Shown piece after piece: positions 5,133 through 37,189 of a DNA stretch of 64,000 nucleotides; positions within the stretch are counted from its first letter, which is position 1, and each line of letters starts with the position of its first letter. The position numbers were made by a program, and so were the translations under genes. The stretch lies in contig UQNH01000001.1 in NCBI GenBank assembly GCA_900542365.1, forward strand, positions 33,130 through 97,129, given 5' to 3'. The stretch comes from an uncultured Collinsella sp. GTDB lineage: Bacteria; Actinomycetota; Coriobacteriia; Coriobacteriales; Coriobacteriaceae. The notes under the pieces are model-generated. The model was not told the DNA's origin and searched no databases. It was given only the letters and a program-made list of their open reading frames with translations.

Positions 5133-5133
5133 G

Positions 5134-5985: not shown

Positions 5986-6047
5986 AACAACTATCGGCCA
6001 CGCAGCCAACGTCATTGATTGCGGACCAAACAAGAAAGGAACTGGAT

Positions 6048-7016: not shown

Positions 7017-7030
7017 AAGGGGCAAAGGCC

Positions 7031-7894
7031 ATGGCATTTAACGTTAACGCGCTCGGATTTGGCGACAACGTCGTCGATCGCTACGAGCATATCCACACCA
7101 TGTATCCCGGCGGCAATGCGGTGAACTTCGCCGTTTATGCCAAGAAATGCGGTGCCGCACGCTCTGCATACATGGGCATTTTTGGCAATGACGCCGCTGC
7201 CGAGCATGTCATTGCAAGCCTCGAGGATGAGGGTATCGAGCTTGACAAGTGCGAGCAGATGATTGGCGAGAACGGAGCGGCTCGCGTGACCGTCGTTGAC
7301 GGTGACCGTGTCTTCCTCGGCTCCAACGAGGGCGGTATCCGTGGCGATGCGCGCTATGTTCTCGATCGCTTTGACCTTTCGTACATGAAGCAGTTCGATG
7401 TGGTTCATTCGGGCAACTATTGCTTCACCGAGCGCGAGCTGCCCAAGTTGAAGGCTGCGGGCGTCACGGTCTCTTTTGACTTTTCGGACGACTCCACCGA
7501 CGAGTACTACGAGCAGATTGCGCCCTATGTCGATTTTGCTTTCTTTAGTGCGGCGGATGCCGCGAGTGAGGACGAGATTCGCGAGCGTCTGGCATGGGTG
7601 AAGGGTCTGGGTCCGCGTTTTGTGTCGGCTACGGCGGGCGCCGAGGGCTGCATCGCTTACGACGGCGAGCGTTATTACCGCCAGCTGGCTAAACCGGTAA
7701 CGGACATGAAGGACACCATGGGGGCGGGCGACTCGTTCCTCACCTCGTTTTTGATGTGCTATCTCGATTCCGCCAAGCGTGGTGAGGGCGGCGCCGAGGC
7801 CATCGAGCGCGCGCTCGACTTTGCTGCCGGGTTTGCCTCGACCGTGTGCGGCATGGAAGGTTCTTGGGGCCACGGAGCACCAATCGTCGAATAG
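7031..7894 (+). CDS. frlD: PfkB-family fructoselysine/fructosamine 6-kinase
   Basis: GDNVVDRY...GGNAVNFAVY and DTMGAGDSFLTSFL closely parallel E. coli FrlD motifs (GDNCVDIY...GGNAVNVAVY, DTMGAGDSFIAGFL; recalled from memory). Confidence 0.7.
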   Translation: MAFNVNALGFGDNVVDRYEHIHTMYPGGNAVNFAVYAKKCGAARSAYMGIFGNDAAAEHVIASLEDEGIELDKCEQMIGENGAARVTVVDGDRVFLGSNEGGIRGDARYVLDRFDLSYMKQFDVVHSGNYCFTERELPKLKAAGVTVSFDFSDDSTDEYYEQIAPYVDFAFFSAADAASEDEIRERLAWVKGLGPRFVSATAGAEGCIAYDGERYYRQLAKPVTDMKDTMGAGDSFLTSFLMCYLDSAKRGEGGAEAIERALDFAAGFASTVCGMEGSWGHGAPIVE

Positions 7895-8015
7895 CTTAAG
7901 AAAGCGTACGGCGGTCTGGCTATGAGGCCTTGGACAGCCGATGCAAAACAATAAGCGAAACGCGAAAAGGGGGCTCGCCATGTGGTGGGTCCCCTTTTGA
8001 ACATTGGAGAAGACC

Positions 8016-8816
8016 ATGGGTATTAAAGCGTGTGCGGCTGGTTTTTGCTGTGCGGACGTCTATCAAAACATCGGCGTGTTCTATCCGACTGGTAATGGCA
8101 TTGACTGGGGTATCCATCTTGCACGATTGGGCGTTTCGGTATCCGCCGTGTCGGTTGTCGGCAAGGACGAGTACGGAGACAAGATGAGAGAGGCGCTGGC
8201 CGCCGAGGGGTTTGATATCTCTCATCTGCGGGTGGAGGATGGCGACACCTCGGTGATGCTCATGGCATTGAAAGACGGCGTCGATCGCGTGCATCTCGAG
8301 GCAATCGATGGCGTAATGGAGACATATCGTCCGAATGAAGATGACCGGGCGTTTATCCTAGAGCATGACATCATTCATACCGACCTGTTTGGCAATTGTT
8401 TGGACCTCCTGCCCGAGTGGCATAATGCGGGCAAGACGGTGGTTATGGACTTCTCGGTGTTCAGCCAAGATCCCGAATATGCCTGCGAGAATCATTTTCC
8501 CTACGTTGACTACGCATTTATGTCGTTTGAAGATGACACTCCGGAGCTGCGGGACTGGGTACGTCACGCGCAGGAATTGGGGCCGCGCGTTGCGGTTGCC
8601 ACGCTTGGCGAGAAGGGAAGCATTGCCTATGACGGTGAGCGCTTCTATGAGTGCGGGATCGTGCCGGCGGAGAAGGTCGTTAATACCGTGGGTGCCGGCG
8701 ACTCGTATATCGCCGGGTTTACCAAGGGCGTGATCGATGGCCTTGATATTCCGGCGTGTATGAAGGCGGGCGCTGAGCTGTCGTCCCGAGTGATTGGTTC
8801 GTTTGAGCCGTACTAG
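8016..8816 (+). CDS. Second, divergent PfkB-family sugar/fructosamine kinase
   Basis: C-terminal NTVGAGDSYIAGF PfkB signature. Same overall layout as the upstream kinase, but the N-terminal motif has diverged (CCADVY...TGNGIDWGIHL). Confidence 0.65.
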   Translation: MGIKACAAGFCCADVYQNIGVFYPTGNGIDWGIHLARLGVSVSAVSVVGKDEYGDKMREALAAEGFDISHLRVEDGDTSVMLMALKDGVDRVHLEAIDGVMETYRPNEDDRAFILEHDIIHTDLFGNCLDLLPEWHNAGKTVVMDFSVFSQDPEYACENHFPYVDYAFMSFEDDTPELRDWVRHAQELGPRVAVATLGEKGSIAYDGERFYECGIVPAEKVVNTVGAGDSYIAGFTKGVIDGLDIPACMKAGAELSSRVIGSFEPY

Positions 8817-8843
8817 GGTCAAATGCCTGGAAAGGAGTACGAA

Positions 8844-9704
8844 ATGGTTATCGACATGTTGGTCCATCCTATGCTCTACGGCGAGATCTGTACGCCGGGT
8901 GATGAGCCTGATGGATTCGGTTTTTGGTCACGAGAATTTGGTATGGGGCATATGGGCCCCATGGATTGGGATGAGCTTCAAGTCGAGATGGACGTCTGCG
9001 ATGTGCAGAAGAGCGTGCTCATGCCGCTCGATGTAACCACGGCATGCGGAGGGCACTTTGGCACCAATGACCAGATTGCCATGCTGGTTGCCGCACATCC
9101 CGATCGTCTGTGGGGATTTGCGAGCGTAGACCCGCAGGTGAGCGGTGCCGCAGACGAATTGGAGCGCGCCTTTACCGAGTTGGGGGCAAAGGGGCTTTGC
9201 CTGCATCCTGCAAAGCAGGGTTTTGCCCCCGATGATGCTGTGGCCGAGCCGCTTTACGAACTGTGCGAGCGCTATAACAAGCCGGTGGTTTTCCATGCCG
9301 GTATGTCTTGGGAGCCGGGCGCAGAGCTCTCGCGCAGTAACCCGCTTGCATTTGAGCACACAATCGCAACGCATCCAAATGTGCGTTTTAGTTTGACCCA
9401 TTTTGGCTGGCCCTGGGTGCGCGAGACCGTGGCGATGCTGCTCAAGTATCCCAACTGCTACGTGGACACCTCTATCACTTACATCGATTCGCCCGAGGAG
9501 ATGATGCAGCGTCTTTTCACGGTCGATATGGGGCCGCTGTGGTATGAGCGCGCGCTATCGCACCAAGTGATGTTCGCCAGCAATACGCCGCGCTTCCGTG
9601 CATTCAAACTCAAGCGGGCGCTCGATACCGTGCCCATGCGCGATGACGCGCGAGAAAGGCTCTACTGGGGTAATGCCCTGCGTTTTCTTGAAGGGGATGA
9701 GTGA
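8844..9704 (+). CDS. Amidohydrolase-2 (ACMSD-like TIM-barrel) family protein
   Basis: MVIDMLVHP start, FHAG and THFGWPW motifs. RBS AAGGAG 6 nt before ATG-8844. Confidence 0.65.
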   Translation: MVIDMLVHPMLYGEICTPGDEPDGFGFWSREFGMGHMGPMDWDELQVEMDVCDVQKSVLMPLDVTTACGGHFGTNDQIAMLVAAHPDRLWGFASVDPQVSGAADELERAFTELGAKGLCLHPAKQGFAPDDAVAEPLYELCERYNKPVVFHAGMSWEPGAELSRSNPLAFEHTIATHPNVRFSLTHFGWPWVRETVAMLLKYPNCYVDTSITYIDSPEEMMQRLFTVDMGPLWYERALSHQVMFASNTPRFRAFKLKRALDTVPMRDDARERLYWGNALRFLEGDE

Positions 9705-9706
9705 AC

Positions 9707-10135
9707 ATGGTGACGCTCGAGACATTGAGCTATCTATCGACTGCTCCGGACCAGTTCATCGATATTACCGAGGACGTGCACGCTGCCATCGAACGCAGCT
9801 CGGTGACCAATGGCTTGGCGGCGATTATTTTGTCGCATACGACCTGCGGAATCGTGGTAAACGAGGGGCTGCCCTGCGTGGAGACGGATCTTATGGAGAC
9901 GCTTGATCGCATCGCCCCACTCGATGCCCCCTATGCGCATGCACACTTCCTGCCGAGCTACGGAGCCACCGGTAACAACTCCTGTGGGCATATCAAGAGC
10001 ATGATTTGTGGAAACAGTTGCTTCTTTCCCGTCCAAGATGGCCACATCGTGTGCGGAAGTGCCCAGAACATCTATCTTGCGGAGTTTGACGGTCCGCAGA
10101 AGCGAAAAGTGTACGTCGAGGTGCTGGGGGAGTAA
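9707..10135 (+). CDS. YjbQ/UPF0047 family protein (secondary thiamine-phosphate synthase-like)
   Basis: FIDITEDVHAAIERSSVTNGLAAIILSHTTCGIVVNE and the HAH...HIKS pattern are typical of YjbQ. Confidence 0.7.
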   Translation: MVTLETLSYLSTAPDQFIDITEDVHAAIERSSVTNGLAAIILSHTTCGIVVNEGLPCVETDLMETLDRIAPLDAPYAHAHFLPSYGATGNNSCGHIKSMICGNSCFFPVQDGHIVCGSAQNIYLAEFDGPQKRKVYVEVLGE

Positions 10136-10168
10136 CGTCCCTGCAATAACCCTATGAAGGAGCACGTT

Positions 10169-10978
10169 ATGTCGTTTCTAACTTCGATGTTCAAGAACGA
10201 AAAGCCGGTTATCGGAATGCTGCACCTGCGTCCTCTGCCGGGCGATCCGCTGTATTACCCGGGCGGAAGCGTATCGCAGGTCGTGGAAGCCGCCAAGCGC
10301 GATCTCGAGGCGTTGCAGCAGGGCGGTGTCGATGGCATTTTGATTACCAATGAGCTCTCGATGCCCTATGAGCAGCATGTTTCTCCCTCAACCCTTGCAT
10401 CGATGGGCTATGTAATCGGGGCTCTGTCCCATGATCTGTCGACTCCTTGGGGAGCTGAGGCAATTTACGATGGTGATGCCACAATCGAGCTGTGCGCTGC
10501 CGTCGACGCGCAGTTCACGCGCTGCAATTTTTGCGGTGCCTGGGCCGGTGATCTCGGGCTGATTAACCGAGATTTCGCTCACACCATGCGTCGCAAGGCG
10601 GCGCTGCGCTTGGACGACCTCAAGCTTTTTCACTTCATCACGAGCGAGGGCGAGGTTTATCTCAACGACCGCACGACCGCGGACATTGCCGATTCACTTC
10701 TCTTTAATTGCCTACCGGATGCGATGGTCATCGGCGGTTCGGCTGCCGGTCGTGGCGCTTCGGGCGAGCTTGCCGACGAGGTCCGCGAGCGTGTTGGCGA
10801 AGTGCCCGTGGTATGTGGCACCGGTTGTCGCGAAAATACCGTGGCTGACGTATTTGCTCACTACGATGGCGCGTTTGTCGGCACGTGCTTAAAGCGCGAC
10901 GGAAAGCTGGATGCCCCGATTGATGTTGAGCGGGTGGTTCGTTTTATGGCTGCCGCTCGTACGGCGCGAGGGGAGTAG
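10169..10978 (+). CDS. BtpA/SgcQ family protein
   Basis: KPVIGMLHLRPLPGDPLY is the BtpA-family N-terminal signature. RBS AAGGAG before ATG-10169. Confidence 0.7.
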   Translation: MSFLTSMFKNEKPVIGMLHLRPLPGDPLYYPGGSVSQVVEAAKRDLEALQQGGVDGILITNELSMPYEQHVSPSTLASMGYVIGALSHDLSTPWGAEAIYDGDATIELCAAVDAQFTRCNFCGAWAGDLGLINRDFAHTMRRKAALRLDDLKLFHFITSEGEVYLNDRTTADIADSLLFNCLPDAMVIGGSAAGRGASGELADEVRERVGEVPVVCGTGCRENTVADVFAHYDGAFVGTCLKRDGKLDAPIDVERVVRFMAAARTARGE

Positions 10979-10984
10979 GCACCT

Positions 10985-12502
10985 ATGGCGCTCTATCTGG
11001 GTATTGATATTGGGACAAGCGCCTCTAAAGGCGTTTTAATCGATGATCGATGCAACATCGTTTGCCAAGCCTCTTGTGGACATGAGACGGACAACCCGTG
11101 TGATGGATGGTACCAGCATGATGCTGAGGCAGTTTGGTGGGGCGATTTTTGCCGCTTGTCGCGCGAGCTGGTGATGCTATCGGGGGTTAACGCGGCGCAG
11201 ATCGGATGCGTGGGCCTTTCCGCATTGGGTTGCGACTGTGTGCCGGTCGATACCGAGTGCAACGCGCTGGCGCCCGCGATTTTGTATGGAGTCGATGCAC
11301 GTTCGAAGCCGCAGATTGACGAGCTCCTTTCCGAATATGGGTCAGGTCGCGCACGCGAACTTTTCGGGCACGATCCCTGCTCATCAGATATTGCTCCTAA
11401 GATCTTATGGTTTAAGGAGAATATGCCCGAGGTGCACGAACGTGCCGCGAAGTTCCTGACGGCATCATCGTTTCTATGCGCAAAGTTGACGGGGCGTTTT
11501 ACGGTGGACCGTTACTTGGCGGAGGATTTTCTTCCCCTATACGACCGCTACACTTGGAGGGTTGATGCTCGGGAATGTGCTCGTTTCTGCCGGCCTGACC
11601 AGATGGCGGAGGTAATGTCGGCTACCGATATTGCCGGGGCGATTACGCAGCGCGCGGCTGAGGCGACAGGGCTCGCGGCAGGGACACCTGTCTTAGTGGG
11701 AACGGGCGACTCTGGTGCCGAGGCCATTTCGACGGGTGTATTTCGTCCCGGCGATATGATGGTTCAGTTGGGGAGCACGGCGTATTTCATCTACCTAGCT
11801 GATCATATGGTCGATGATGCCCGCCTGTGGCCAGGGACGTTTATCATTCCCGGAACTTACGGGATCTGCGCGGGGACCAATACGGCGGGTGCACTCACAT
11901 CGTGGCTGCGCCAAGAGCTGTATCGCGACGCCGTGGAGGCCGAGGGCCACGGTGGCCCCGATGCATATTCGGTCATGGCGCATGATGCCGCCGATGTGGC
12001 GCCGGGTGCCGATGGGCTCCTGTGCCTGCCGTACTTTGCGGGGGAGCGTACTCCGCTCAACGATCCCGAGGCACGTGGCGTCTTCTTTGGCCTGACCGGA
12101 AGGCATACGCGAGCCCATATGGTTCGCGCCGCCTTGGAAGGCGTCGCGTATACCGTTGCATCCCATGTCGACATTATCGAGCGAGAGCATGGACTGCCAA
12201 TTGGGCGCATTATGCTTGTCGGAGGTGGAACCAAGAATCCAGTTTGGATGCAGGCTATCGCCGACGTATGCGGGCGCGAGGTCTCGGTTGCCAAGGTTAC
12301 GGTGGGCGCATGCTTCGGTGATGCCATCATGGCAGCTCTCGCAGGTGGCGCCTATGCATCATGGGATGAACTCGCCCAAGTCCTTGGCGTTGCACAAACA
12401 ATCGTGCCCGATATGGATGCCCACGAGCTATATGCGTCGCGTCGTCATATCTTTGACGAATTGTATGCACGTAACCGTGATCTCATGCACGAATTGGTGT
12501 AA
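10985..12502 (+). CDS. FGGY-family carbohydrate kinase (xylulokinase-like)
   Basis: MALYLGIDIGTSASKGVLID N-terminus, GTGDSGAEA and GGGTKNPVWMQ motifs. Confidence 0.8.
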   Translation: MALYLGIDIGTSASKGVLIDDRCNIVCQASCGHETDNPCDGWYQHDAEAVWWGDFCRLSRELVMLSGVNAAQIGCVGLSALGCDCVPVDTECNALAPAILYGVDARSKPQIDELLSEYGSGRARELFGHDPCSSDIAPKILWFKENMPEVHERAAKFLTASSFLCAKLTGRFTVDRYLAEDFLPLYDRYTWRVDARECARFCRPDQMAEVMSATDIAGAITQRAAEATGLAAGTPVLVGTGDSGAEAISTGVFRPGDMMVQLGSTAYFIYLADHMVDDARLWPGTFIIPGTYGICAGTNTAGALTSWLRQELYRDAVEAEGHGGPDAYSVMAHDAADVAPGADGLLCLPYFAGERTPLNDPEARGVFFGLTGRHTRAHMVRAALEGVAYTVASHVDIIEREHGLPIGRIMLVGGGTKNPVWMQAIADVCGREVSVAKVTVGACFGDAIMAALAGGAYASWDELAQVLGVAQTIVPDMDAHELYASRRHIFDELYARNRDLMHELV

Positions 12503-17349: not shown

Positions 17350-17589
17350 TAGCAATTGCACTGCAGCTATGCCCTGGCTGCTGGTTTGATTCATAATCAA
17401 AGTCATCTCTTTGGGATTAAAGCCCGTTTTTGCTATGAGTGATTTTCTAATTCCGTTTAAAACGTAAAGACGTATTGGGTTACAAGGACATAAGCAAATC
17501 GAATTGAAATATAACCAGTGCTGTAACGTTACAAAAAAGGTTATAGAATAGGAGTATCTTATAAGTCGCTCCTCTAGAAAGAAGAACAT

Positions 17590-18717
17590 ATGCTTTCGCG
17601 TCGTCGTTTTCTGCAACTTGTCGCGTCTTCAATTGTCGCCTTAGCCGCACGTCCGAAAGAGGTTTTTGCTTTGACGGGCAATATTGATGGTGAGCAGATA
17701 CAATTTACTTCAGAAATTGCGCAAGAGCTTGCCGATAAATATATAAAGGGACTCCTCGGCTCTTCGTATACGCCTTCTGACCCTATTCCTTTTGTAGACG
17801 TTGATGGGTCCCCGCTTGGCTACATTGTTCCGGTTGTGACATTCAATAGAGCCGCGGGCTATTTGGTTTTAGATGCTTCAGATGATGAAATACTTACGGG
17901 ATATCGTTTTGGAGACGGCTTAGTCAGCCCTATGGATCGGGGAGGAGATCTTGGTGTTGAGTCTTATTCTTTCAATAACCCAGTCGTAATGATCAATCCA
18001 TTCGAATTCGGTGTGCAATCTTTGGACGGTTCAATAACAACAAATTGCGGAAGAACAATCCCGGCTGTTTCCATAGAAGGACGGCCTGTCGTTTTATCGA
18101 ATAAACCTTCAAGCTGGAACGATGTCGTAATTTACGCAACTCAAATGCAGGATTACACAGTATCTGGATTTCGTTCCATTTCTCAGTTTATGTCATATGA
18201 TGAAAGCGAGATTAAGAGGCTTACTGCCCACTATGCTTGTATGGTGACAGCTTTTTCGAACGTTGCGGAACTGTATGGCATTGCCAATTTATATAACGAC
18301 CCTTCGCAATATATGCAGATATGGAATTACACCAATACCCATGCTCTTTCCGATGAAGAACAGACTGTTCCCGGCGTTGTTTTGGGCGGAACGCCGATAT
18401 CAACCTGTGCAACGGGGTTTACAAATTACTGCGCAAGCAGAGGAAGTACTCTTATCGCCCGCACTGTCTCCTCTCCGGCTATCGCGAGCATTCAAAATGA
18501 GATTAACTCTAATAGACCGAATGTTTTACATGCGAGTTTGTACAACGGATCAGCCCATTCTGTAACAGCGGAGGCTTACGCCACACTTACTGGTAAGAAA
18601 ACTGGAGAGACAAGGCAGATGATTGGCATAGCGGACGGCTGGAATTCATCTTTATCCTTCCTGAAGTATGATCAGAGCTATTATGCGTGGACTTATGGAA
18701 CGACTTTTTCGAAGTAG
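17590..18717 (+). CDS. Tat-signal secreted protein, possible papain-fold (C39-like) cysteine peptidase
   Basis: Twin-arginine signal MLSRRRFLQLVASSIVALAA. HYACMVTAFSNVAELYG and GSAHSVTAEAY...DGWN resemble Cys/His/Asp-type C39-like motifs; the functional call is inference. AT-richer than the flanks. Confidence 0.45.
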   Translation: MLSRRRFLQLVASSIVALAARPKEVFALTGNIDGEQIQFTSEIAQELADKYIKGLLGSSYTPSDPIPFVDVDGSPLGYIVPVVTFNRAAGYLVLDASDDEILTGYRFGDGLVSPMDRGGDLGVESYSFNNPVVMINPFEFGVQSLDGSITTNCGRTIPAVSIEGRPVVLSNKPSSWNDVVIYATQMQDYTVSGFRSISQFMSYDESEIKRLTAHYACMVTAFSNVAELYGIANLYNDPSQYMQIWNYTNTHALSDEEQTVPGVVLGGTPISTCATGFTNYCASRGSTLIARTVSSPAIASIQNEINSNRPNVLHASLYNGSAHSVTAEAYATLTGKKTGETRQMIGIADGWNSSLSFLKYDQSYYAWTYGTTFSK

Positions 18718-19087
18718 GACGATTCGTCTAGCTCTGTCTTTGGTGCTGATGGCTTCATTGGTGGGCTGTTCAACAAAGGAAGAGATATCGCGCGGAGGTT
18801 CCGGAGAAGTGACTGCGACAGACTCAGGTTCATTAGAAATAGCTGGCGGGCATGCCGATGTGATGTTACAAGGAAAAGGCGTGCTTAGGTCGATTGATGC
18901 TGAAGACGCTGTCTGCTCAATAGAGGATTTGAAGACAGGTGAAACTGCATCGTACCGAGTTTCAGATAATGCTGCGAATATGATTGAGTCGATACCGACT
19001 GGAGCGCAGGTTTCTTTTAGATACTTTGCTCCGCAACTTGAGGATGAGCTTGCTTCTCTGGTGTCTATATGCGCCGATGACAACTAA
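18695..19087 (+). CDS. Lipoprotein, unknown function
   Basis: Signal plus lipobox in MERLFRSRTIRLALSLVLMASLVGC. Overlaps the 3' end of the upstream gene. ATG-18683 is an alternative start. Confidence 0.55.
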   Translation: MERLFRSRTIRLALSLVLMASLVGCSTKEEISRGGSGEVTATDSGSLEIAGGHADVMLQGKGVLRSIDAEDAVCSIEDLKTGETASYRVSDNAANMIESIPTGAQVSFRYFAPQLEDELASLVSICADDN

Positions 19088-19102
19088 AAGGCCTGAATTC
19101 AA

Positions 19103-21527: not shown

Positions 21528-21701
21528 ACGGGGTCCTCCCGGTGTAAATCTGCTTCGTTTCGTGTAGCCATCAGGGTACCCACCAGATGTGAATCGTACG
21601 TGACATTTAACAGATACCATCAACTCATCAAGGGGGCCTGCTGTCTTTGGTGCGATAGCTTGATGCTAAACTGGATTTATGTTTGCGAGGTGGTTTACGT
21701 G

Positions 21702-21920
21702 ATGTACCCGTATATGACATTCGAAGATGGAACCGAGGTCATTCATTCTGACCTGATTACAGATGGCGATATCGAAAAGGTTATCGTGCATTTTGAACGA
21801 CCGACGGCAGAGGGTTTCGACTCCGCTCGTTGTGAGTTGCCTTCCTGTTCGTGGACTGACTGGGAAGGGCATTTTACTCAGAGTGAAAAACGAGCTTTCG
21901 AAGAGTGTCTGAGCAAATAA
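21702..21920 (+). CDS. Small hypothetical protein (72 aa)
   Basis: MYPYMTFEDGTEVIHSDL...; RBS GCGAGGTGG. First gene of the AT-rich islet. Confidence 0.45.
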   Translation: MYPYMTFEDGTEVIHSDLITDGDIEKVIVHFERPTAEGFDSARCELPSCSWTDWEGHFTQSEKRAFEECLSK

Positions 21921-22020: not shown

Positions 22021-22302
22021 ATGGATGAGCTAATAGACTTTAAAAAACGATTTCTCAAGAATGGCGAGCTGGTTTCAATTCCAAAAAAGGAAAGCTATAA
22101 AAGAATCATGCTGCTATGGGCCGTCTCTTTCTTTGAATTAAATACAAGTTATACGGAGCTTCAGGTTAATCGTGTGCTGTCACAGCTCTATCCTGATTAT
22201 GCCGTGTTGAGGCGGTGCTTGGTTGATTATGGATTCCTATTAAGGGATGAACGAGGCCTGAAATACGAGGTTAATCGTGATGTTCACGGTATTGAGAGCT
22301 AG
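22021..22302 (+). CDS. DUF2087 domain protein (regulator-associated domain)
   Basis: YTELQVNRVLSQLYPDYAVLRRCLVDYGFLLRDERG matches the DUF2087 pattern. RBS GGAGGA. Confidence 0.65.
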   Translation: MDELIDFKKRFLKNGELVSIPKKESYKRIMLLWAVSFFELNTSYTELQVNRVLSQLYPDYAVLRRCLVDYGFLLRDERGLKYEVNRDVHGIES

Positions 22303-23464
22303 CCGTCCGGTTCGGGTCCTATATATTGCTAGAGGGATAAGCGAAATAGGCAATTGGTGTGCGAATATTGCTTTGCCAATGCTAATTTACGAGGTAACTC
22401 ACGATGTTTCTGCAACTGCTTTGATGGTCTGCTGCAGATTTGCCCCCTCTCTGTTTTCAGTTGCGCTCGCGCAGCTGCCTCAGAAGATGGGTATCGGGAC
22501 ACTGCAGGCCATGAGATTGGCAGACTTAATTCGCGCGGGATTATTCGTTTGCTATATTTTTGTTGATAGTAAATGGAGTATGTTTGCTATTACGTGCGCG
22601 GTATCGCTTTGCCGAACGGTAGAAATGCCCTGCTTTTACTCGTTGTTAAGAGCCAATACGAATAGTATCAATCGCGACGTAATTAATAATTCGTTTGGGT
22701 TCCTGCAGAATTTGATGATGGTTCTGGGGCCAGTTGCCGGCGGTTTTGTTGTCGCTCAATTTGGGGCGGAGGCTGTTCTTGCATTAGACGCGCTTTCTTT
22801 TGCCGCGTCGTTCTGGTTGCTGCGAGATGTTCCGTCGGTTATCGAGGTTAATGATAAAGAGGGAATAAGCAAAAATGAAAAAAACAGGACTGCATTTAGT
22901 GATCTTAGCGCGAAGCACTTGGCAATTGGTTTCCTATTAATCGATATTTCTAGTGGCGTGGCATTCGGCTCTCTGAATTCTCTTTTGCCAGCTATAGCGC
23001 AATTGCAATTTGACTCGTCATCGATACAATACGGATTCCTTCAGAGTAGTCTTACAATCGGACTGTTGTTCGGAAATACAATATATGGTCGTTTAATCAG
23101 TGGTTCCGATTGCGTTAAATCATATTGTTTTGTGACGTATCTTGCGCTCGGTGCGTATCTGGCGTTTGGCTATCGCTATGCGTCTGGGATATCGTTTATT
23201 TTCCTTTTTATCGTCGGTGCCGGAAACGCCATTCAAGATGTGCTTCTCATAACATCGCTGCAGGATTTGGCGAGAGACGGATCTGAATCGATAAGCCTGT
23301 TTTCAATTAGGGAGTCTTTGCAATCGGTTGCTGTTGTTATTTCAACACTTCTTGTTTCGCTGTTCACGAGCATCGCGATGTTCTCAATTCTCGTTACAGG
23401 ACTTGGTGTATTTTCAATTATGATGGTAGTTGTGTTTCAATTGAATTATTTGCGAAAGATGTGA
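22280..23464 (+). CDS. MFS transporter
   Basis: About 394 aa with roughly 12 hydrophobic segments. Overlaps the DUF2087 gene 3' end. GTG-22277 is an alternative start. Confidence 0.75.
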   Translation: MFTVLRASRPVRVLYIARGISEIGNWCANIALPMLIYEVTHDVSATALMVCCRFAPSLFSVALAQLPQKMGIGTLQAMRLADLIRAGLFVCYIFVDSKWSMFAITCAVSLCRTVEMPCFYSLLRANTNSINRDVINNSFGFLQNLMMVLGPVAGGFVVAQFGAEAVLALDALSFAASFWLLRDVPSVIEVNDKEGISKNEKNRTAFSDLSAKHLAIGFLLIDISSGVAFGSLNSLLPAIAQLQFDSSSIQYGFLQSSLTIGLLFGNTIYGRLISGSDCVKSYCFVTYLALGAYLAFGYRYASGISFIFLFIVGAGNAIQDVLLITSLQDLARDGSESISLFSIRESLQSVAVVISTLLVSLFTSIAMFSILVTGLGVFSIMMVVVFQLNYLRKM

Positions 23465-23471
23465 CGTTGAT

Positions 23472-25793
23472 ATGCCTAAAACGCTTTTAGTATTTCCCCC
23501 AGGATGGAGTCCAGTGGGGCCGTATCTTGCCTTGCCTGTTTTGAAGTCATATCTTCAAGAGGTTGAACAATACAAAGTTGACATTGTTGACTTAAACGTG
23601 GAATTTTACGATGACCTCCTATCTTTTAGACATGTCGAAGAGTGCTGTAAAAGGTATCGGGAATCAAAGGATTCGTTTAGTTCGAATGTCCAATTAACAA
23701 TCGAGTTGATACAAAAGTCGGCACTTAATGTTGACGAGGCAAAAGATATTTTCAGATCGAAGAGATACTTTAATCTAAAAGAAAGACAATATGCTGAAAA
23801 CATTTTTAGAAATGCACTCTATATCATAAATCACGTCTCATATGGAGTTAAATACACGTTCAACTCCATAGATCTGCCCTATGATTATTATTCGACACCA
23901 GAAATAATGAAATCGCTTGCGGATACCTTGCATAATCCGTTTATTTCCTTCTATGAAACTGCCTTTCTTAAGCGTATTCAGAGGGAAAAAATCGAGTTTA
24001 TTGGGATTTCGGTGAGCGGCTGTTTCCAATTGATTTCTGCAGTTACGTTAGCGAAACTGATTAAAGAAGAATGTCCATCTGTTAAACACGTCTCATTGGG
24101 CGGCAATTACATTACTCGTTTAGCAGATGACTGCATGAAAGAATGGCATCCCTTTTTTGAATACATTGATTCGATAATGATGTATGACGGCGAAGAGCCG
24201 CTTGCACGTCTTCTTGAGGCTCTTGACTCTGGTGATGACAATCTCGACTGTGTTCCAAACCTTTGCCATGCTAAAGGTGGAAAGATATATAAAAACCATC
24301 GGATTGAGCAAACATTTATCAACGATACAGTTCCCGATTTCGATGGCTTCGCCCTTTCTAAATACTTCATGCCTGAGCTAATATTGCCGGTTTATTCCTC
24401 TAGGCAGTGTTTTAATCATTGCGCCTTCTGCACCATTCCCGGTGCTACCGGTGGTTGTTACCGAAAGATGCCTATATCGAGAGTATTTGAAATAATGTGT
24501 CGGTTAAATGAAAAATACGGCACGAGAGTTTTCTCTTTTGTGGATGAAACATTCGAAGGCAAAAGAATGGAGCAACTCGCGGATGAAATAAACGCATCGG
24601 GAAAAACGTTTTTCTGGCATGGAGAAACGAGGTTCTCTCCAACCCTAAGTACAGACGTTTTTAACAAGATATACCAAAGTGGATGTAGGCAGATTCAGTT
24701 TGGCCTCGAGTCATACAACCAAAGAGTTCTTGATCTAATGAAGAAGAACACGAGAGTTGATTGGATTGATCGCAATATCCATGATTGTCTCAATGCGGGT
24801 ATTCCTGTTCATCTATTTTTTATGATTGGCTTTCCGACCGAAACTAAAGAAGAGGCTCTGAACACCTTAGCTTATACAGAGAATGTTTTGAATTATTCAA
24901 AACAGGTATGTGGTGTTCCATATTCCACGAGAGGATTTACGAATTTTGGTCTCGTTATGGGGTCGGATGTTTGGAATCATCCCGATAAGTATGGTGTCTC
25001 TGTAATGCCGCAGTCCCAATATGAGGATTTGCGCCTCGAAGTAGATTATGTTTCAGGCACTGGTTTAACTTTAAATGAAGCAAAATCCTTATCTGATGAG
25101 CATCATATTGATTTTTATATGCAAGAGGTCATAAACGGTAGCGACACAATTGACTTGCCCCAGCGGCTTCATATTTCAGAGGTGACCTGGATCCTAGATT
25201 CTATTCACGCTGTCAGGTATAAGGGACATTTGACCAAAGTAAAGCGACGGCTAACTAGTCTAAATCCAGCTGATCGAATCTGGCTGGATTCCAAGACCTC
25301 TGTCGTGCTCGTTGAGCCATTTGCCTACTTCTATAATTCTGAATACCATCATGTCTATGCTGTTTCCCAGTTGGTATACCATAAGTTGGCCCGTTTATTG
25401 GAGGCCGATTGTAGCATTTCTCTTATTCTTGATCAGGGCGACCTCGAGCTGACAAGGGCGATAGAAGAACTGTTGCATTATGGATTGCTGAATACAAATA
25501 TCGATGCCGATTATGTAATGCACGATAATGGTTTTCAATTGGTTAAAAGTTCGTTTGTTAAAGAAGTCGGACGCTCAAAAGAGGGGTTAAGAGTACTGCT
25601 GAGTTGTGCCACCCATAGAATGTGTGCGGTTAATGATTTTTCGTTCGCTTTGCTTTCGTTGTTTGAAAAGCCGATTACTAAGAACGAGGTGCGCGACATT
25701 TTGAAAAAAGAGGGACTATCGACAAGCGAGGAGCAATTAAACAAGTTGGTTGATAATTGCATGAAAGCAGATATACTACAACTGATTAGATAG
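23472..25793 (+). CDS. B12-binding-domain radical SAM enzyme (RiPP-maturase-type C-methyltransferase-like) with a C-terminal PqqD/RRE-like region
   Basis: CFNHCAFC = CX3CX2C at 24408-24431. The N-terminus TLLVFPPGWSPVGPYLALPVLKSYLQ...DLNVEFYD resembles class-B rSAM bacteriocin-maturation proteins. The C-terminal ~175 aa contain two PqqD-like segments. Confidence 0.8.
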   Translation: MPKTLLVFPPGWSPVGPYLALPVLKSYLQEVEQYKVDIVDLNVEFYDDLLSFRHVEECCKRYRESKDSFSSNVQLTIELIQKSALNVDEAKDIFRSKRYFNLKERQYAENIFRNALYIINHVSYGVKYTFNSIDLPYDYYSTPEIMKSLADTLHNPFISFYETAFLKRIQREKIEFIGISVSGCFQLISAVTLAKLIKEECPSVKHVSLGGNYITRLADDCMKEWHPFFEYIDSIMMYDGEEPLARLLEALDSGDDNLDCVPNLCHAKGGKIYKNHRIEQTFINDTVPDFDGFALSKYFMPELILPVYSSRQCFNHCAFCTIPGATGGCYRKMPISRVFEIMCRLNEKYGTRVFSFVDETFEGKRMEQLADEINASGKTFFWHGETRFSPTLSTDVFNKIYQSGCRQIQFGLESYNQRVLDLMKKNTRVDWIDRNIHDCLNAGIPVHLFFMIGFPTETKEEALNTLAYTENVLNYSKQVCGVPYSTRGFTNFGLVMGSDVWNHPDKYGVSVMPQSQYEDLRLEVDYVSGTGLTLNEAKSLSDEHHIDFYMQEVINGSDTIDLPQRLHISEVTWILDSIHAVRYKGHLTKVKRRLTSLNPADRIWLDSKTSVVLVEPFAYFYNSEYHHVYAVSQLVYHKLARLLEADCSISLILDQGDLELTRAIEELLHYGLLNTNIDADYVMHDNGFQLVKSSFVKEVGRSKEGLRVLLSCATHRMCAVNDFSFALLSLFEKPITKNEVRDILKKEGLSTSEEQLNKLVDNCMKADILQLIR

Positions 25794-25806
25794 AGGAGGT
25801 TTCTGC

Positions 25807-25917
25807 ATGGACGTTATTAACAAAGATCTCTTGGAGCAACTGAAAGAGTCTCAGGAAGAGGGCGTCGTGGTAGAAGTGTTCGACTTTGAGGACTACATGG
25901 ATAAATTCTGCCATTAG
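25807..25917 (+). CDS. Candidate RiPP precursor peptide (36 aa), absent from the ORF track
   Basis: ATG lies 7 nt after GAGGAGG. Translation MDVINKDLLEQLKESQEEGVVVEVFDFEDYMDKFCH. Starts 14 nt after the rSAM stop codon and is followed by an intrinsic terminator. Confidence 0.65.
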   Translation: MDVINKDLLEQLKESQEEGVVVEVFDFEDYMDKFCH

Positions 25918-25943
25918 TTTCGGAATTTTCTTGCCTCGCTTAA

Positions 25944-25976
25944 AGGAGAAGTCGATTATCGATTTCTCCTTTTTTA
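25944..25976 (+). terminator. Rho-independent terminator closing the rSAM-peptide operon
   Basis: AGGAGAA (25944-25950) / TTCTCCT (25964-25970), followed by TTTTT. Confidence 0.75.
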
Positions 25977-26105
25977 GTTAAAGATATTTTTGGAATACAT
26001 GCTCTTAGCACAGGTTAGCGTCTCAGTAAACTGGGAGGTTGCTTTGGCTAGTTAGAGATATGTGAACGTCCGTTAGACTGAATCTCAGGGTAGAAGGGGC
26101 CTCCA

Positions 26106-33767: not shown

Positions 33768-34508
33768 TTAGGCAAACATGACCTGGTCGAACGTATAGAA
33801 GCCGGGTTCACGGGCGACGAGCTTCTGCGCGGCTGCCAGGGCGCCGTTGACAAAGATCTGACGGCTCGTGGCGCGGTGGGTGAGCGTGACTTCCTCGTCC
33901 TGGCCAAAGAAACCCACCTCGTGCACACCGGCTACGGTGCCGCCGCGCAGCGAGTGCATGCCGATTTCCTTGGGGTCGCGCGCTCCGCACATGCCCTCGC
34001 GGCCATAGACGGGGTGGTAGCCTGCCTCGGGCTCGGCCTCGACTACGGCGTCGAGCAGCAGCTTGGCAGTGCCGCTGGGGGCGTCGACTTTTTGGTTATG
34101 GTGCGTCTCGACGATTTCGCAGTCAAAGCCGGGCAGCTCACGCGTGGCCTGGGCCACTAGATGACGCAGGGCTGCGATGCCGATCGAGTAATTGCCCGAG
34201 TGCATAACGCGGGTGTTCTGGCCCAGCTCACGCAGACGGTCCATCTGCTCGGGGGTGTAGCCTGTGGTGCCCGAGACCAACGCCGCGCCCGTGCGCTCGA
34301 CATAGGCGACGACGGCATCGAAGGTCACGACGTTCGAGAAGTCGATGATGACGTCGGCTGCCGGGGTGCTCTCGAGCTCGGACAGGTCAAAACCGATCTG
34401 GGCCACGATATCAAAAACGGGCTCTCCAGCGGCGTTGACAATGCCCTCGGCGGTAGTGTGGATGAGCGAGCCCATGCGGCCCGTTCCCATAATGACGGTC
34501 TTAATCAA
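33768..34508 (-). CDS. dapB: 4-hydroxy-tetrahydrodipicolinate reductase
   Basis: IMGTGRMG N-terminus, EIVETHHNQKVDAPSGTA signature. The start overlaps the dapA stop. Confidence 0.9.
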   Translation of the reverse strand: MIKTVIMGTGRMGSLIHTTAEGIVNAAGEPVFDIVAQIGFDLSELESTPAADVIIDFSNVVTFDAVVAYVERTGAALVSGTTGYTPEQMDRLRELGQNTRVMHSGNYSIGIAALRHLVAQATRELPGFDCEIVETHHNQKVDAPSGTAKLLLDAVVEAEPEAGYHPVYGREGMCGARDPKEIGMHSLRGGTVAGVHEVGFFGQDEEVTLTHRATSRQIFVNGALAAAQKLVAREPGFYTFDQVMFA

Positions 34509-35391
34509 GCAGACCAGCTCCCTTCAGAGCATCGGTAAGTGCGGCGCGCGTGTTATCGGCCATGGGGCACAGCGGCATGCGGTAGTTGGCTTCGATCATG
34601 CCCATCTGGGCGAGTGCCTCCTTGACGGGGATGGGGTTGACCTCGCTAAAGAGGGCATTGATGAGCGGCTGTCCGGCAATTTGGATATCGCGGGCGCGCT
34701 CCACGTCGCCGTCCAGATAGGCGCGGCACATGTCGTGCACGAGCTGCGGCTGAACATCGGCCCACACGCTGATGGTGCCCGAGGCGCCCAGGCTCATGAG
34801 CGGCACGGTGAGCGTGTCTTCGCCCGAGTACATACGGAAGTCGTCGGACAGCAGGTGGGCGATCTTGGCCGCGTAGGCGACGTTGCCCGAGGCTTCCTTA
34901 ATACCCATGATGTTGGGGTGCGCGGCCAAGCGCTCTACGTTGCGCTCGCTGATGCCGCAGCCGCAGCGGCCGGGGATGTTGTACAGGATGCAGGGGATAT
35001 CTACGGCATCGGCAACGGTCTTAAAGTGCTGGTAGATGCCCTCTTCATTAGACTTGTTGTAGTAGGGGGTAATGAGCAGCAGGCCGTCGGCGCCCAGGCC
35101 CTGATAGGTGAGCGACTTGGTGAGCATGGTTTGCGTGGAGTTGGAACCCGAGCCGGCGATGACGGGGACGCGGCCTGCAACCTGCTTGACCACGGCGGCG
35201 ACGACGGAGTTGTCCTCGTCATCGGTCATCGTGGCGCTCTCGCCGGTGGTGCCCAGGGTGAGGATGGCGTCGGTGCCATTTTGCAGGTGGAAATCGATAA
35301 GGCGCTCGAGTGCGTCAAAGTCGACGCTGCCGTCCTTTTTAAACGGCGTAACAAGGGCGACGATCGAGCCCTCGAGGTTGCGGATATCCAT
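34501..35391 (-). CDS. dapA: DapA moiety with its own SD and ATG inside the long ORF
   Basis: AAGGAGAAGAAC-ATG (ATG at 35391-35389). MDIRNLEGSIVALVTPFKKDGSVDFDALERLIDFHL...GTTGES...IKEASG; 296 aa. Confidence 0.75.
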   Translation of the reverse strand: MDIRNLEGSIVALVTPFKKDGSVDFDALERLIDFHLQNGTDAILTLGTTGESATMTDDEDNSVVAAVVKQVAGRVPVIAGSGSNSTQTMLTKSLTYQGLGADGLLLITPYYNKSNEEGIYQHFKTVADAVDIPCILYNIPGRCGCGISERNVERLAAHPNIMGIKEASGNVAYAAKIAHLLSDDFRMYSGEDTLTVPLMSLGASGTISVWADVQPQLVHDMCRAYLDGDVERARDIQIAGQPLINALFSEVNPIPVKEALAQMGMIEANYRMPLCPMADNTRAALTDALKGAGLLD

Positions 35392-36810
35392 GTTCTTCTC
35401 CTTCGCTTCCGCGATCTGGATGCGTTTGTTCCATTGGACGGCGACGGCCAGGCGCTCGTCCTGAGCGCGACGACGAGCGCTTTCGGCGCGCGACTTGGCC
35501 AGCAGCTCTCGGCCGCTCGGCAACACGTCGAGCGTGGCAAAATAATCGCCCGGGCGCTCGGCGCGGCGGATAAGGTCGGCCGAGCCGTCGGGGCGCAGCA
35601 GCACCTCGGCGGAGCGCAGACGGCCGTTGTAGTTGTAGCCCATGGAGTAACCATGCGCGCCGGTATCGTGGATCACGAGCACATCACCCATGTCGACCCG
35701 CGGTAGCTCGCGGTCGATGGCGAACTTGTCGTTGTTCTCGCACAGATTGCCCGTAATGTCGTACGTGTTTGTGACAGGCGCCGCGGTCTTGTCGGAGCCA
35801 CCCGGCTGGCCCATCACCGTAATGTGGTGGTAGGCGCCATACATGGCAGGGCGGATCAGATCGACGGCGCTTGCGTCGACACCGATATAGTCCTTGTAGA
35901 TTTGCTTCTCGTGGATGGCCTTGGTGACCAGGCAGCCGTAGGGGCCCATCATAAAGCGGCCCATCTCGGTGCAGATTGCCACATCGCCCATGCCGGCGGG
36001 AACCAGAATCTCGTCGTAGGCCGCATGCACTCCTTCGCCGATGGCATGGATATCGTTGGCCTGCTGCTCGGGCAGGTAGGGGATGCCGACGCCGCCGGAC
36101 AGATTGATAAAGGCGACGTGTGCGCCGGTCTCGCGCTCCAGGCGCACGGCAAGCTCAAAGAGGATGCGCGCGAGCTTGGGGTAGTAGTCGTTGGTGACGG
36201 TGTTGCTGGCAAGGAATGCGTGGATGCCAAAGTTTTCGGCGCCCTTGGCCTTGAGCGTGCGAAAGGCCTCGAAGAGCTGCTCGGTGGTCATGCCGTATTT
36301 GGAGTCGCCGGGGTTGTCCATGATGCCGTTGGAGAGCTGGAACAGACCGCCCGGATTAAAGCGGCAGCTGACCGTCTTGGGGATGGGGCCTGCGACGCGC
36401 TCAAAGAACTCGATGTGGCTGATGTCGTCAAAGTTGACGATGGCGCCCAGCTTGTCGGCGAGCTCAAAGTCCGCTGCCGGCGTGTCGTTGGATGAGAACA
36501 TGATGTCGTGTCCCGTGATACCCAGCGAGCGGGCGATCATGAGCTCGGTATAGCTCGAGCAATCGCAGCCGCAGCCGTATTCGTTGAGAATGGAGATGAG
36601 CGCCGGGTTGGGATTGGCCTTGACGGCAAAGTATTCCTTAAAGCCCGGGTTCCATGCGAAGGCGTCGCGCACCTCTTGCATGTTGCGTCGGATGCCCGCC
36701 TCGTCATATAGATGAAATGGCGTGGGGAACTGCTCGACGATATGCTCGAGCGTCTTCTTGTCCACAAACGGCTGCTTGGCCGCATATGCCTCGTTGGGGG
36801 TTAATGCCAT
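34501..36810 (-). CDS. Continuous 769-codon ORF: diaminopimelate decarboxylase (LysA) read in-frame into 4-hydroxy-tetrahydrodipicolinate synthase (DapA)
   Basis: N-terminal ~430 aa are an Orn/DAP/Arg decarboxylase (FPTPFHLYDE, YFAVKANPNP). A ~45-aa Arg/Ala/Glu-rich linker follows with no stop codon, then a complete DapA. Confidence 0.7.
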   Translation of the reverse strand: MALTPNEAYAAKQPFVDKKTLEHIVEQFPTPFHLYDEAGIRRNMQEVRDAFAWNPGFKEYFAVKANPNPALISILNEYGCGCDCSSYTELMIARSLGITGHDIMFSSNDTPAADFELADKLGAIVNFDDISHIEFFERVAGPIPKTVSCRFNPGGLFQLSNGIMDNPGDSKYGMTTEQLFEAFRTLKAKGAENFGIHAFLASNTVTNDYYPKLARILFELAVRLERETGAHVAFINLSGGVGIPYLPEQQANDIHAIGEGVHAAYDEILVPAGMGDVAICTEMGRFMMGPYGCLVTKAIHEKQIYKDYIGVDASAVDLIRPAMYGAYHHITVMGQPGGSDKTAAPVTNTYDITGNLCENNDKFAIDRELPRVDMGDVLVIHDTGAHGYSMGYNYNGRLRSAEVLLRPDGSADLIRRAERPGDYFATLDVLPSGRELLAKSRAESARRRAQDERLAVAVQWNKRIQIAEAKEKNMDIRNLEGSIVALVTPFKKDGSVDFDALERLIDFHLQNGTDAILTLGTTGESATMTDDEDNSVVAAVVKQVAGRVPVIAGSGSNSTQTMLTKSLTYQGLGADGLLLITPYYNKSNEEGIYQHFKTVADAVDIPCILYNIPGRCGCGISERNVERLAAHPNIMGIKEASGNVAYAAKIAHLLSDDFRMYSGEDTLTVPLMSLGASGTISVWADVQPQLVHDMCRAYLDGDVERARDIQIAGQPLINALFSEVNPIPVKEALAQMGMIEANYRMPLCPMADNTRAALTDALKGAGLLD

Positions 36811-36881
36811 GTCCCGTAAACCTCGCTATCCAGACGGCGCCATCTGCGCATCGAATCCGCATAGCGTGGACCCAATGTCCG

Positions 36882-37038
36882 GATAGCGCTCCCGCATTGC
36901 TGCAGACAGTCCTGCGGGTGTTTCCCGCAGGCCCACCAGGTTGTTCGTGCCCGAAAAGCCCAGTTCGGCGGGTTTCGCCTCCCCACGGGGTCAAAGCCTG
37001 CCGGCTCACCCGCGGTTCTTCGTGCCCGCGCCTCTATC
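36882..37038 (-). promoter_or_regulatory. Lysine riboswitch (L-box) in the lysA-dap operon leader
   Basis: The minus strand reads GATAGAGGCGCGGGCACGAAG...GGGGAGGCGAAACCCGCCGAACTGGG...GGACTGTCTGCAG...GGGAGCGCTATC. This matches L-box hallmarks (AGAGGCGC, GGGGAG..GCCGAA, ACUGUC, closing P1 GAUAG/CUAUC). No U-tract terminator follows. Confidence 0.75.
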
Positions 37039-37189
37039 AAGTGGTAACGACCCTACCACGTTGCACTTTACCAAACAAGAGTATTCGTATATAACGTTTA
37101 AAAAATGCAGGGATATGCTGGAAATAAGGGTGTAGCAATCTTGCGGCACAATAGATAGCAGCCGACGCGCACCTACGAAAGGAACCAAT

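Follow-up and report, generated by a model that had tools for sequence, protein, structure and literature searches.

What does the short gene at the end of a low-G+C gene island in Collinsella encode? The gene is a 36-codon open reading frame (ORF) at positions 25807 to 25917 of a 64,000-nucleotide stretch of DNA from an uncultured Collinsella sp. (contig UQNH01000001.1; the whole stretch is referred to here as the window), and it follows directly on a gene for a radical S-adenosylmethionine (rSAM) enzyme. We consider it very probable that the ORF is a real gene, coding for the precursor peptide that this class-B rSAM enzyme takes as its substrate, and that it is the last gene of an operon of the type that makes peptides that are synthesized ribosomally and then modified post-translationally (RiPPs). 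A preliminary description had named the ORF a putative precursor, and that reading is supported by the presence of such an ORF beside the enzyme gene in 12 of 13 loci, by tandem RiPP recognition elements (RREs) in the enzyme, and by purifying selection on the core of the peptide. Conserved, co-oriented adjacency, an RRE in the maturase or a partner protein, and coding-type selection with a leader and a core are the general marks of a RiPP precursor, and each was found here.

The ORF starts with ATG on the + strand, exactly where it was first placed, and its translation is MDVINKDLLEQLKESQEEGVVVEVFDFEDYMDKFCH. A Shine-Dalgarno sequence read from the DNA, GAGGAGG (25793 to 25799, + strand), overlaps the TAG stop codon of the rSAM gene at 25791 to 25793, which lies 13 nt from the peptide ATG; the spacer between GAGGAGG and the ATG is exactly 7 nt, as described. 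An intrinsic terminator (25942 to 25978, + strand) closes the operon with a hairpin at 25942 to 25972 that has a stem of 14 bp, a 3-nt loop, and a T-run behind it, and the region folds with a minimum free energy of −21.1 kcal/mol (z = −3.1 relative to shuffled sequences). The hairpin is where the preliminary description had put it, apart from a trivial correction: 24 nt, rather than 26, separate the stop codon from the base at which the stem begins. The leader comprises codons 1 to 21 (25807 to 25869, + strand; MDVINKDLLEQLKESQEEGVV) and carries the family motif described below, while the core comprises codons 22 to 36 plus the stop (25870 to 25917, + strand; VEVFDFEDYMDKFCH) and includes the K33-F34 codons (25903 to 25908, + strand), the putative site of modification. 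A weak promoter-like site, TTGATA-16-TATACT (25750 to 25777, + strand), may lie within the 3′ end of the rSAM gene, about 30 nt 5′ of the peptide ATG; it matches the consensus at 10 of 12 positions, in a region that is overall no richer in such sites than shuffled sequence (9 versus 7.7). We mention it because the bottromycin precursor gene btmD has an internal transcription start site within btmC (PMC7113386).

The peptide had no match in Pfam and only a spurious one in NCBIfam (E = 0.019), and a search of the locus against Rfam gave no match to a cobalamin riboswitch or to any other RNA. The ORF was first called unannotated, which is correct in that it is uncharacterised, yet an identical protein has been deposited (CUP28592.1; UniRef100_A0A174LWN9) under the name “Uncharacterised protein [Collinsella aerofaciens].” Its strong negative charge was also stressed at first; the net charge of the window peptide is indeed −8, but this is not a trait of the family, whose other members range from −8 to +6.

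The preliminary description held that an absence of equivalent ORFs from related loci would count against a precursor, and we found the opposite. We examined every distinct non-Collinsella locus with a homologue of the enzyme that could be retrieved (rSAM identity, 33 to 60%), and 12 of these 13 loci carry a homologous ORF of 33 to 49 amino acids beside the enzyme gene, in at least eight distant lineages (Coriobacteriia, Lachnospiraceae, Dorea, Desulfosporosinus, Lactococcus, Fusobacterium, Paraclostridium, and Streptomyces). The closest is in a related high-GC organism (L081; rSAM identity, 60%; peptide MLPIDLEIIEKLKETCEEGVKIEVFDFEDYMDKFCH). Two Lachnospiraceae loci at about 46% rSAM identity encode near-identical peptides, MDKQLLEKLKELEEKEIIAENLENQDYVMKYAN in L083 and one ending in ...YVMKYAT in L173, and a Lachnospiraceae metagenome contig encodes one of the same type (L133; MEKELIERLKELEAQDIFAENLENEDYVVKYST). 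The Desulfosporosinus acidiphilus peptide (L084; rSAM identity, 40%; MSKEILKQLQEEALTKEVTAEVFDTCSNSTQYV) begins at a TTG codon with its own Shine-Dalgarno sequence. Further members come from Dorea (L088; MLELLQEIKEMVNEEIKFDVMANQSVNDAMNTTQYSP), Lactococcus lactis (L089; MDFEKIKSLAEVMEVQSTKDSAQAVDSEMNTKYC), a Bacilli bacterium (L175; ...VESEVNTKFV), Fusobacterium nucleatum (L092; MKKLILIEIKKLSEKEGVEVKNCDLGSSLTTKYA), a metagenome contig (L174; ...DVKEPNSTKYTSPE), and a Paraclostridium ghonii plasmid (L176; ...IVSQSTTQYCLK). On an AT-rich contig (L163; ...FETTKYAGPVVIKK) the peptide gene is upstream of the cluster's DUF2087 gene, and in Streptomyces coeruleorubidus (L178; ...NRLNSKYALLQEPANG) it is upstream of the enzyme gene. 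A metagenome scan seeded with a Desulfosporosinus-first alignment returned mostly Collinsella sequences; the only new types were those of L133 and L163.

Two features are common to these peptides. Toward the N terminus there is an amphipathic motif, approximately [DE]-[LI]-[LI]-x-x-[LI]-[KQ]-E. The other feature is a [K/Q][Y/F] dipeptide near the C terminus, present in every family peptide found and usually preceded by N-[ST]-[ST]. The dipeptide stood 1 to 4 residues from the end in 11 of 12 peptides tested, compared with a frequency of 4.4% among the small open frames of these loci (binomial P of ∼1e−14, uncorrected for relatedness, with at least seven independent lineages). In all 12 homologous peptide genes a GGAGG/AGGAG-type site lies 6 to 10 nt upstream.

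The earlier suggestion that the Val, Phe, and Asp residues of the VVVEVFD stretch are the targets of the enzyme is not supported at the level of the family: the stretch lacks family-wide conservation, and the invariant element is [K/Q][Y/F]. The stretch does recur in Desulfosporosinus (AEVFDTC), and extra, clade-specific methylations may occur there.

The surroundings of the pair differ among relatives. An Rgg regulator is encoded immediately upstream in the Lactococcus and Bacilli loci, and others adjoin LytTR or two-component regulators. In L174 (6648 to 10448), genes for a full-length LanB-type dehydratase and an MNIO of the MbnB/TglH family come after the rSAM-peptide pair (core, ...PNSTKYTSPE), which suggests a hybrid pathway with additional modifications. 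In the Streptomyces locus (4746 to 12055), the peptide has a 10-residue tail after NSKY, and the neighbours include two conserved proteins without a family (418 and 234 amino acids), a major facilitator superfamily (MFS) transporter, and a Methyltransf_24-HTH-DUF2087 fusion. The gene order in L163 (1398 to 6319) is peptide, DUF2087, a 298-amino-acid rSAM-like protein (CNLKCKFC), a 707-amino-acid B12-rSAM, and MFS.

Variation among close relatives divides the peptide in two. Between the window and L081, codons 23 to 36 differ by 5 synonymous and 0 nonsynonymous changes, while codons 2 to 22 differ by 6 synonymous and 13 nonsynonymous changes that leave the L-x-x-L-K-E motif in place. In a 222-member peptide cluster (90% identity), variants among the members listed are confined to residues 4 to 21. 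Purifying selection on the last 14 residues is strict and the N-terminal half varies while retaining its amphipathic L-x-x-L-K-E, so that the division into leader and core drawn in the preliminary description holds. The pattern is the one to be expected of a leader-plus-core precursor with the C-terminal K-F as its key determinant. Among 150 Collinsella loci, the ORF had no indel or nonsense change and the downstream intergenic region had 7 indel sites; in no other segment compared was the density of variable sites as low as in the terminator. One allele, from a single Collinsella metagenome-assembled genome (L043, approximately 8336 to 8446; EELDYEDNKHKFCH), has six clustered core substitutions (VFDFEDYMD to ELDYEDNKH) beside an intact enzyme and retains K-F-C-H; its core is either recombinant or rapidly diversified.

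An ORF this short could have arisen by chance, and a similar-sized ORF of 42 codons runs antisense to it (25786 to 25914, − strand) and might be the real feature. We give this explanation almost no weight. The sense ORF, its Shine-Dalgarno sequence, and its motif are conserved across phyla, and the exclusively synonymous change in the core is what a coding sequence would show. In most homologues, stop codons break up the antisense frames; the sense frame is the only one open in all 12 homologous genes, and on this ground the antisense ORF was rejected.

The gene upstream of the peptide ORF (23472 to 25793, + strand) encodes a 773-amino-acid protein with a Radical_SAM domain (Pfam PF04055, E = 6.9e−18, 65.8 bits). 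The [4Fe-4S] motif C313-x3-C317-x2-C320 (24408 to 24431, + strand; translation, SSRQCFNHCAFCTIP) is a CxxxCxxC motif in the rSAM barrel; among 60 homologues, C313 and C320 do not vary, and conservation of C317 is 90% or higher. The N-terminal domain has a cobalamin-type fold, as seen from homologues and from the predicted structure: Pfam B12-binding (PF02310) scored 19.9 bits in the window enzyme, under the 32.1 cutoff, and matched 34 of the 60 homologues. An AlphaFold2 model built on the 60 homologues was of high confidence (pLDDT 93, pTM 0.92), and its top Foldseek neighbours were all cobalamin-type rSAM enzymes (OxsB [4.8e−17], TsrM, MgmA, CysS, TokK, and AprD4). A profile search of the Protein Data Bank (PDB) returned the same set, and a PDB sequence search with the full enzyme as the query returned AprD4 as its sole match. 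By sequence and predicted fold, the enzyme is a class-B (cobalamin-type) rSAM.

The best match in NCBIfam was TIGR03975, “RiPP maturation radical SAM C-methyltransferase” (residues 6 to 519, E = 1e−34), at 120.1 bits against a cutoff of 281.85. The next matches, PhpK, ApyD, HpnJ, BchE, and MCR glutamine methylase, were all far under their cutoffs; ApyD, the third-best match overall, scored 85 bits against a cutoff of 750. No SPASM domain was detected with Pfam in the enzyme or in the 60 homologues, and a tblastn search of plasmids recovered only distant rSAMs (≤28% identity). In the L. lactis cluster (L089/L090, 8766 to 9681), the MFS gene is followed directly by genes for a DUF4430 lipoprotein and an unassigned 187-amino-acid protein. 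B12 binders of the transcobalamin type have DUF4430 as their C-terminal domain (PMC4350170), and this lipoprotein, a weak contextual hint of cobalamin use, may belong to a module that captures B12 for the B12-rSAM.

The C-terminal part of the enzyme, residues 580 to 773 (25209 to 25790, + strand), consists by predicted fold and profile of two tandem PqqD-like RREs. Modelled separately with AlphaFold2 (pLDDT 93.5), these last 194 residues form a beta-sheet-plus-three-helix module twice in succession. Foldseek aligned the model over 205 columns with ThcOx (E = 3.8e−4), itself a tandem-RRE protein; other matches were the TigE RRE, TbiB1 with a bound leader, TglHI, the PbtF RRE, MibB, a lasso B1 protein, and CteB. 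A profile of the C-terminal region recovered only 70 clusters among 1.84 billion representative proteins (E ≤ 1e−3) and nothing meaningful among PDB sequences. Outside the rSAM family, the clusters recovered are stand-alone proteins of about 90 amino acids, and 9 of 10 tested were PF05402 (PqqD); PqqD also matched 5 of the 60 enzyme homologues. By its predicted fold and the PqqD profile matches, the enzyme carries a fused tandem RRE, i.e., it is built for binding the leader of a peptide substrate.

We postulate the following mechanism. The peptide would be translated from its own strong Shine-Dalgarno sequence, and its N-terminal ∼20 residues, including the amphipathic D-L-L-E-Q-L-K-E, would dock on the tandem RREs. 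Docking would bring the C-terminal core to the active site with its [4Fe-4S]/SAM center and cobalamin, where one or more unactivated carbons in or beside K33-F34 would be modified. The product, which could be an antimicrobial or a signal, would leave the cell through the MFS pump encoded upstream.

Several findings weigh against this account. The enzyme scores far under the cutoff of every curated family, and homology therefore does not assign a reaction to it. B12-rSAM enzymes in RiPP pathways also perform chemistry other than methylation, such as the C-C cross-link made by PbsB (PMC12257519). No gene for a leader protease is present in the island. In the exceptional thirteenth locus (L177), the enzyme gene is accompanied by a 70-codon upstream ORF without the motif and by extra rSAM genes. 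Finally, nonsense or frameshift mutations disrupt 38 of the 138 full-length copies of the rSAM gene in Collinsella (27%), a count in which frameshifts are possibly inflated by assembly errors in metagenome contigs. The system can thus be dispensed with and is in many cases not active.

The window's own copy of the enzyme gene is intact. The disrupted copies (among them L033, L046, L060, L070, L072, L073, L075, L077, L078, L104, and many of L121 to L172) have their first stop at 23 different codon positions, and 10 of the 38 are clean in-frame nonsense alleles, some of them in isolate genomes (AF14-35 and AM15-2, both with the stop at codon 280, D6t1, and RTP21359). The enzyme therefore seems to have been lost repeatedly and independently in Collinsella. 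Some Collinsella assemblies contain 1053-amino-acid MFS-rSAM fusion ORFs, and N-terminally truncated rSAM calls of 628 amino acids form clusters of 3554 and 280 members, compared with 12,784 for the 759-amino-acid form. These fused and truncated calls (seen among P0002 to P0007 and P0008/P0009) are consistent with frequent disruption.

That the ORF stays intact where the rSAM gene is broken could mean that it encodes an unmodified small protein with an accessory, regulatory, or immunity role and that the enzyme acts on some other substrate. We think this highly improbable. Scaled from the 38 enzyme disruptions, only about 1.8 would be expected under neutrality in a 111-nt ORF, and we rejected the intactness of the ORF in broken-enzyme strains as a sign of independent function, since it is uninformative at this number. 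The enzyme has two RREs, the known role of which is to bind precursor leaders, and the loci have no second conserved peptide that could be a candidate.

If the peptide is, as we prefer, the substrate of the enzyme, what is done to it? C-methylation heads our ranking, tentatively, because the nearest curated family and most of the structural neighbours are methylases. A somewhat less likely possibility is that the peptide is a precursor in which the B12-rSAM enzyme introduces a cross-link, a ring, or a rearrangement around [K/Q][Y/F], such as a C-C bond between the side chain of Lys or Gln and the aromatic ring; the product would then be a modified peptide of a new kind. The invariant pair consists of an aliphatic amide or amine residue followed by an aromatic one, and the residue pairs joined by cross-linking rSAM enzymes resemble it. 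C-C cross-links are documented for PbsB, a B12-rSAM (PMC12257519), the window enzyme falls outside every curated methyltransferase family, and the nonmethylating OxsB and AprD4 are among its closest structures. Set against this, its best curated sequence match is to RiPP C-methyltransferases, the methylases TsrM, MgmA, CysS, and TokK dominate its structural neighbours, and the known Lys/Arg-aromatic cross-linkers are SPASM enzymes, a domain that was not detected here.

The peptide might instead be a sacrificial scaffold in the style of pyrroloquinoline quinone, mycofactocin, or 3-thiaglutamate biosynthesis, such that the K/Q-Y/F unit is modified, excised, and exported by the MFS protein. Invariance across the family is limited to a dipeptide near the C terminus, the recognition domain is PqqD-like, and the transporter is an EntS-like small-molecule MFS exporter rather than a peptidase-ABC type, in an island that lacks a leader protease. 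We nevertheless judge a scaffold improbable: in the Collinsella/L081 clade the whole 14-residue C terminus is under purifying selection, the island encodes no excising enzyme, and bottromycin, a true peptide, is likewise exported by an MFS protein (PMC7113386).

We regard peptides with [K/Q][Y/F] and their tandem-RRE class-B rSAM enzymes as an uncharacterised, phylogenetically broad RiPP family in which an MFS gene is usual and a DUF2087 gene frequent, with the window peptide as its founding example from Collinsella. We found no paper on this peptide family in a literature search that left out most subscription journals. A bolder view, which we hold to be rather unlikely, is that the family is an unrecognised cross-phylum RiPP class, abundant in Collinsella of the human gut, with a B12-rSAM chemistry new to this class of enzymes (a cross-link from Lys or Gln to the aromatic residue, or the excision of a dipeptide-derived small molecule), the product of which serves as a signal or antagonist and is subject to repeated, cheater-like loss within Collinsella populations.

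Does the system belong to a class that is already known? The C-methyltransferases of TIGR03975, such as the proteusin-type enzymes PoyB and PoyC, are likewise class-B rSAM enzymes that act on ribosomal peptides and have an N-terminal cobalamin-type domain and an rSAM barrel. Their precursors carry an NHLP or Nif11 leader. The window enzyme differs in its fused tandem RRE and its 36-amino-acid precursor, and its cluster is minimal, without an epimerase, dehydratase, or N-methyltransferase. Membership in TIGR03975 was rejected on the score given above and for want of an NHLP/Nif11 leader, and membership with ApyD was rejected on score as well.

The bottromycin core, GPVVVFDC, resembles the G-VVV-E-VFD of the window peptide and the AEVFDTC of Desulfosporosinus, and the bottromycin precursor uses a C-terminal follower. 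Here, in contrast, the conserved core is C-terminal and stands behind an N-terminal leader, and the VVVxVFD stretch is not a family-wide feature. The gene content is also alike, in that the btm cluster encodes a DUF2087 protein (BtmL), an MFS transporter (BtmA), and class-B rSAM methyltransferases (BtmC, BtmG, and BtmK), with the precursor gene btmD directly 3′ of btmC (PMC7113386). The island has no YcaO gene or further tailoring genes (amidohydrolase, P450, and aminopeptidase genes were likewise not found there), and we rejected a bottromycin-type cluster.

Streptococcal RaS-RiPP pathways are under Rgg/SHP control and use SPASM-type rSAM enzymes. They resemble the window locus in combining a small precursor, an rSAM enzyme, and a transporter in one operon, and the Rgg genes at the Lactococcus and Bacilli relatives add to the likeness; they differ in that the Collinsella locus has no Rgg gene and its enzyme gave no match to a SPASM domain. 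Membership in any of the 16 streptococcal subfamilies was rejected, since the motif is absent from the published list (PMC13361665) and the island lacks Rgg.

In clavusporin biosynthesis, the B12-rSAM enzyme MpcB beta-C-methylates a short ribosomal peptide, in an operon that also encodes a transporter (PMC10849626). The motif of MpcB is CX7CX2C, and the enzyme depends on a DUF5825 partner and an S9 peptidase (PMC10849626). Membership was rejected because the window enzyme has CX3CX2C and fused RREs, and Pfam scans found no DUF5825. PbsB, of a biphenomycin-like pathway, is another B12-rSAM enzyme from a RiPP cluster with an MFS gene, but it requires prior hydroxylation by an MNIO and a separate RRE protein (PMC12257519). 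ApyD, too, is a B12-rSAM of RiPP pathways.

The peptide ORF is the last gene of a low-G+C island of about 4.5 kb (approximately 21.5 to 26.0 kb; 40 to 46% GC, versus about 62% in the flanks) with tightly packed genes on the + strand in the order DUF2087, MFS, 773-amino-acid rSAM, peptide, and terminator. We propose that the four-gene operon was horizontally acquired. The DUF2087 gene (22021 to 22302, + strand; 93 amino acids; Pfam PF09860, E = 3.4e−19) encodes a probable regulator or modulator of the cluster, and DUF2087 genes also adjoin the rSAM-peptide pair in L081, L082/83, L084, L163, L173, and L178. BtmL, the only characterised DUF2087 protein that our literature search turned up, specifically raises transcript levels of the btmD precursor gene (PMC7113386), and by analogy with BtmL we infer that the island protein may modulate expression. 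The MFS gene (22277 to 23464, + strand; 395 amino acids; MFS_1, 7.2e−16; MFS_3, 6.9e−12), with NCBIfam matches to TIGR00900 and EntS-like families, encodes the probable exporter of the product; an MFS gene adjoins the rSAM gene in 12 of the 13 distinct loci, L177 being the one without. A Collinsella-specific ORF of 106 codons (21600 to 21920) lies in the same low-G+C patch.

Collinsella is a prevalent human gut actinobacterium, and the enzyme is widespread within it. There were 423 matches in GTDB species-representative genomes, and the best 80 of the 423 were almost all from Collinsella or other Coriobacteriaceae at 99 to 100% identity; one 90% enzyme cluster holds 12,784 sequences. The locus is one among many uncharacterised rSAM-RiPP clusters. 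Its minimal operon of one enzyme and one peptide offers an unusually tractable route to a new B12-rSAM peptide modification, and the natural nonsense alleles of the enzyme in isolates are ready negative controls in the search for the product and for its part in the ecology of the gut. Genome mining can make use of the [K/Q][Y/F] signature, of the tandem-RRE architecture, and of the DUF2087-MFS partnership, which recurs and is shared with bottromycin.

Elsewhere in the window, a second low-G+C patch (17500 to 19100; ∼44 to 46% GC) encodes a 375-amino-acid protein that begins with a signal resembling the twin-arginine type (MLSRRRFLQLVASS...) and had no match in Pfam, together with an overlapping 139-codon ORF; this patch is probably another horizontally acquired segment. 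A lysine riboswitch (36876 to 37044, − strand; Rfam RF00168, 74 bits) lies upstream of a 769-codon ORF (34501 to 36810, − strand), the product of which looks like a diaminopimelate decarboxylase/dihydrodipicolinate synthase fusion.

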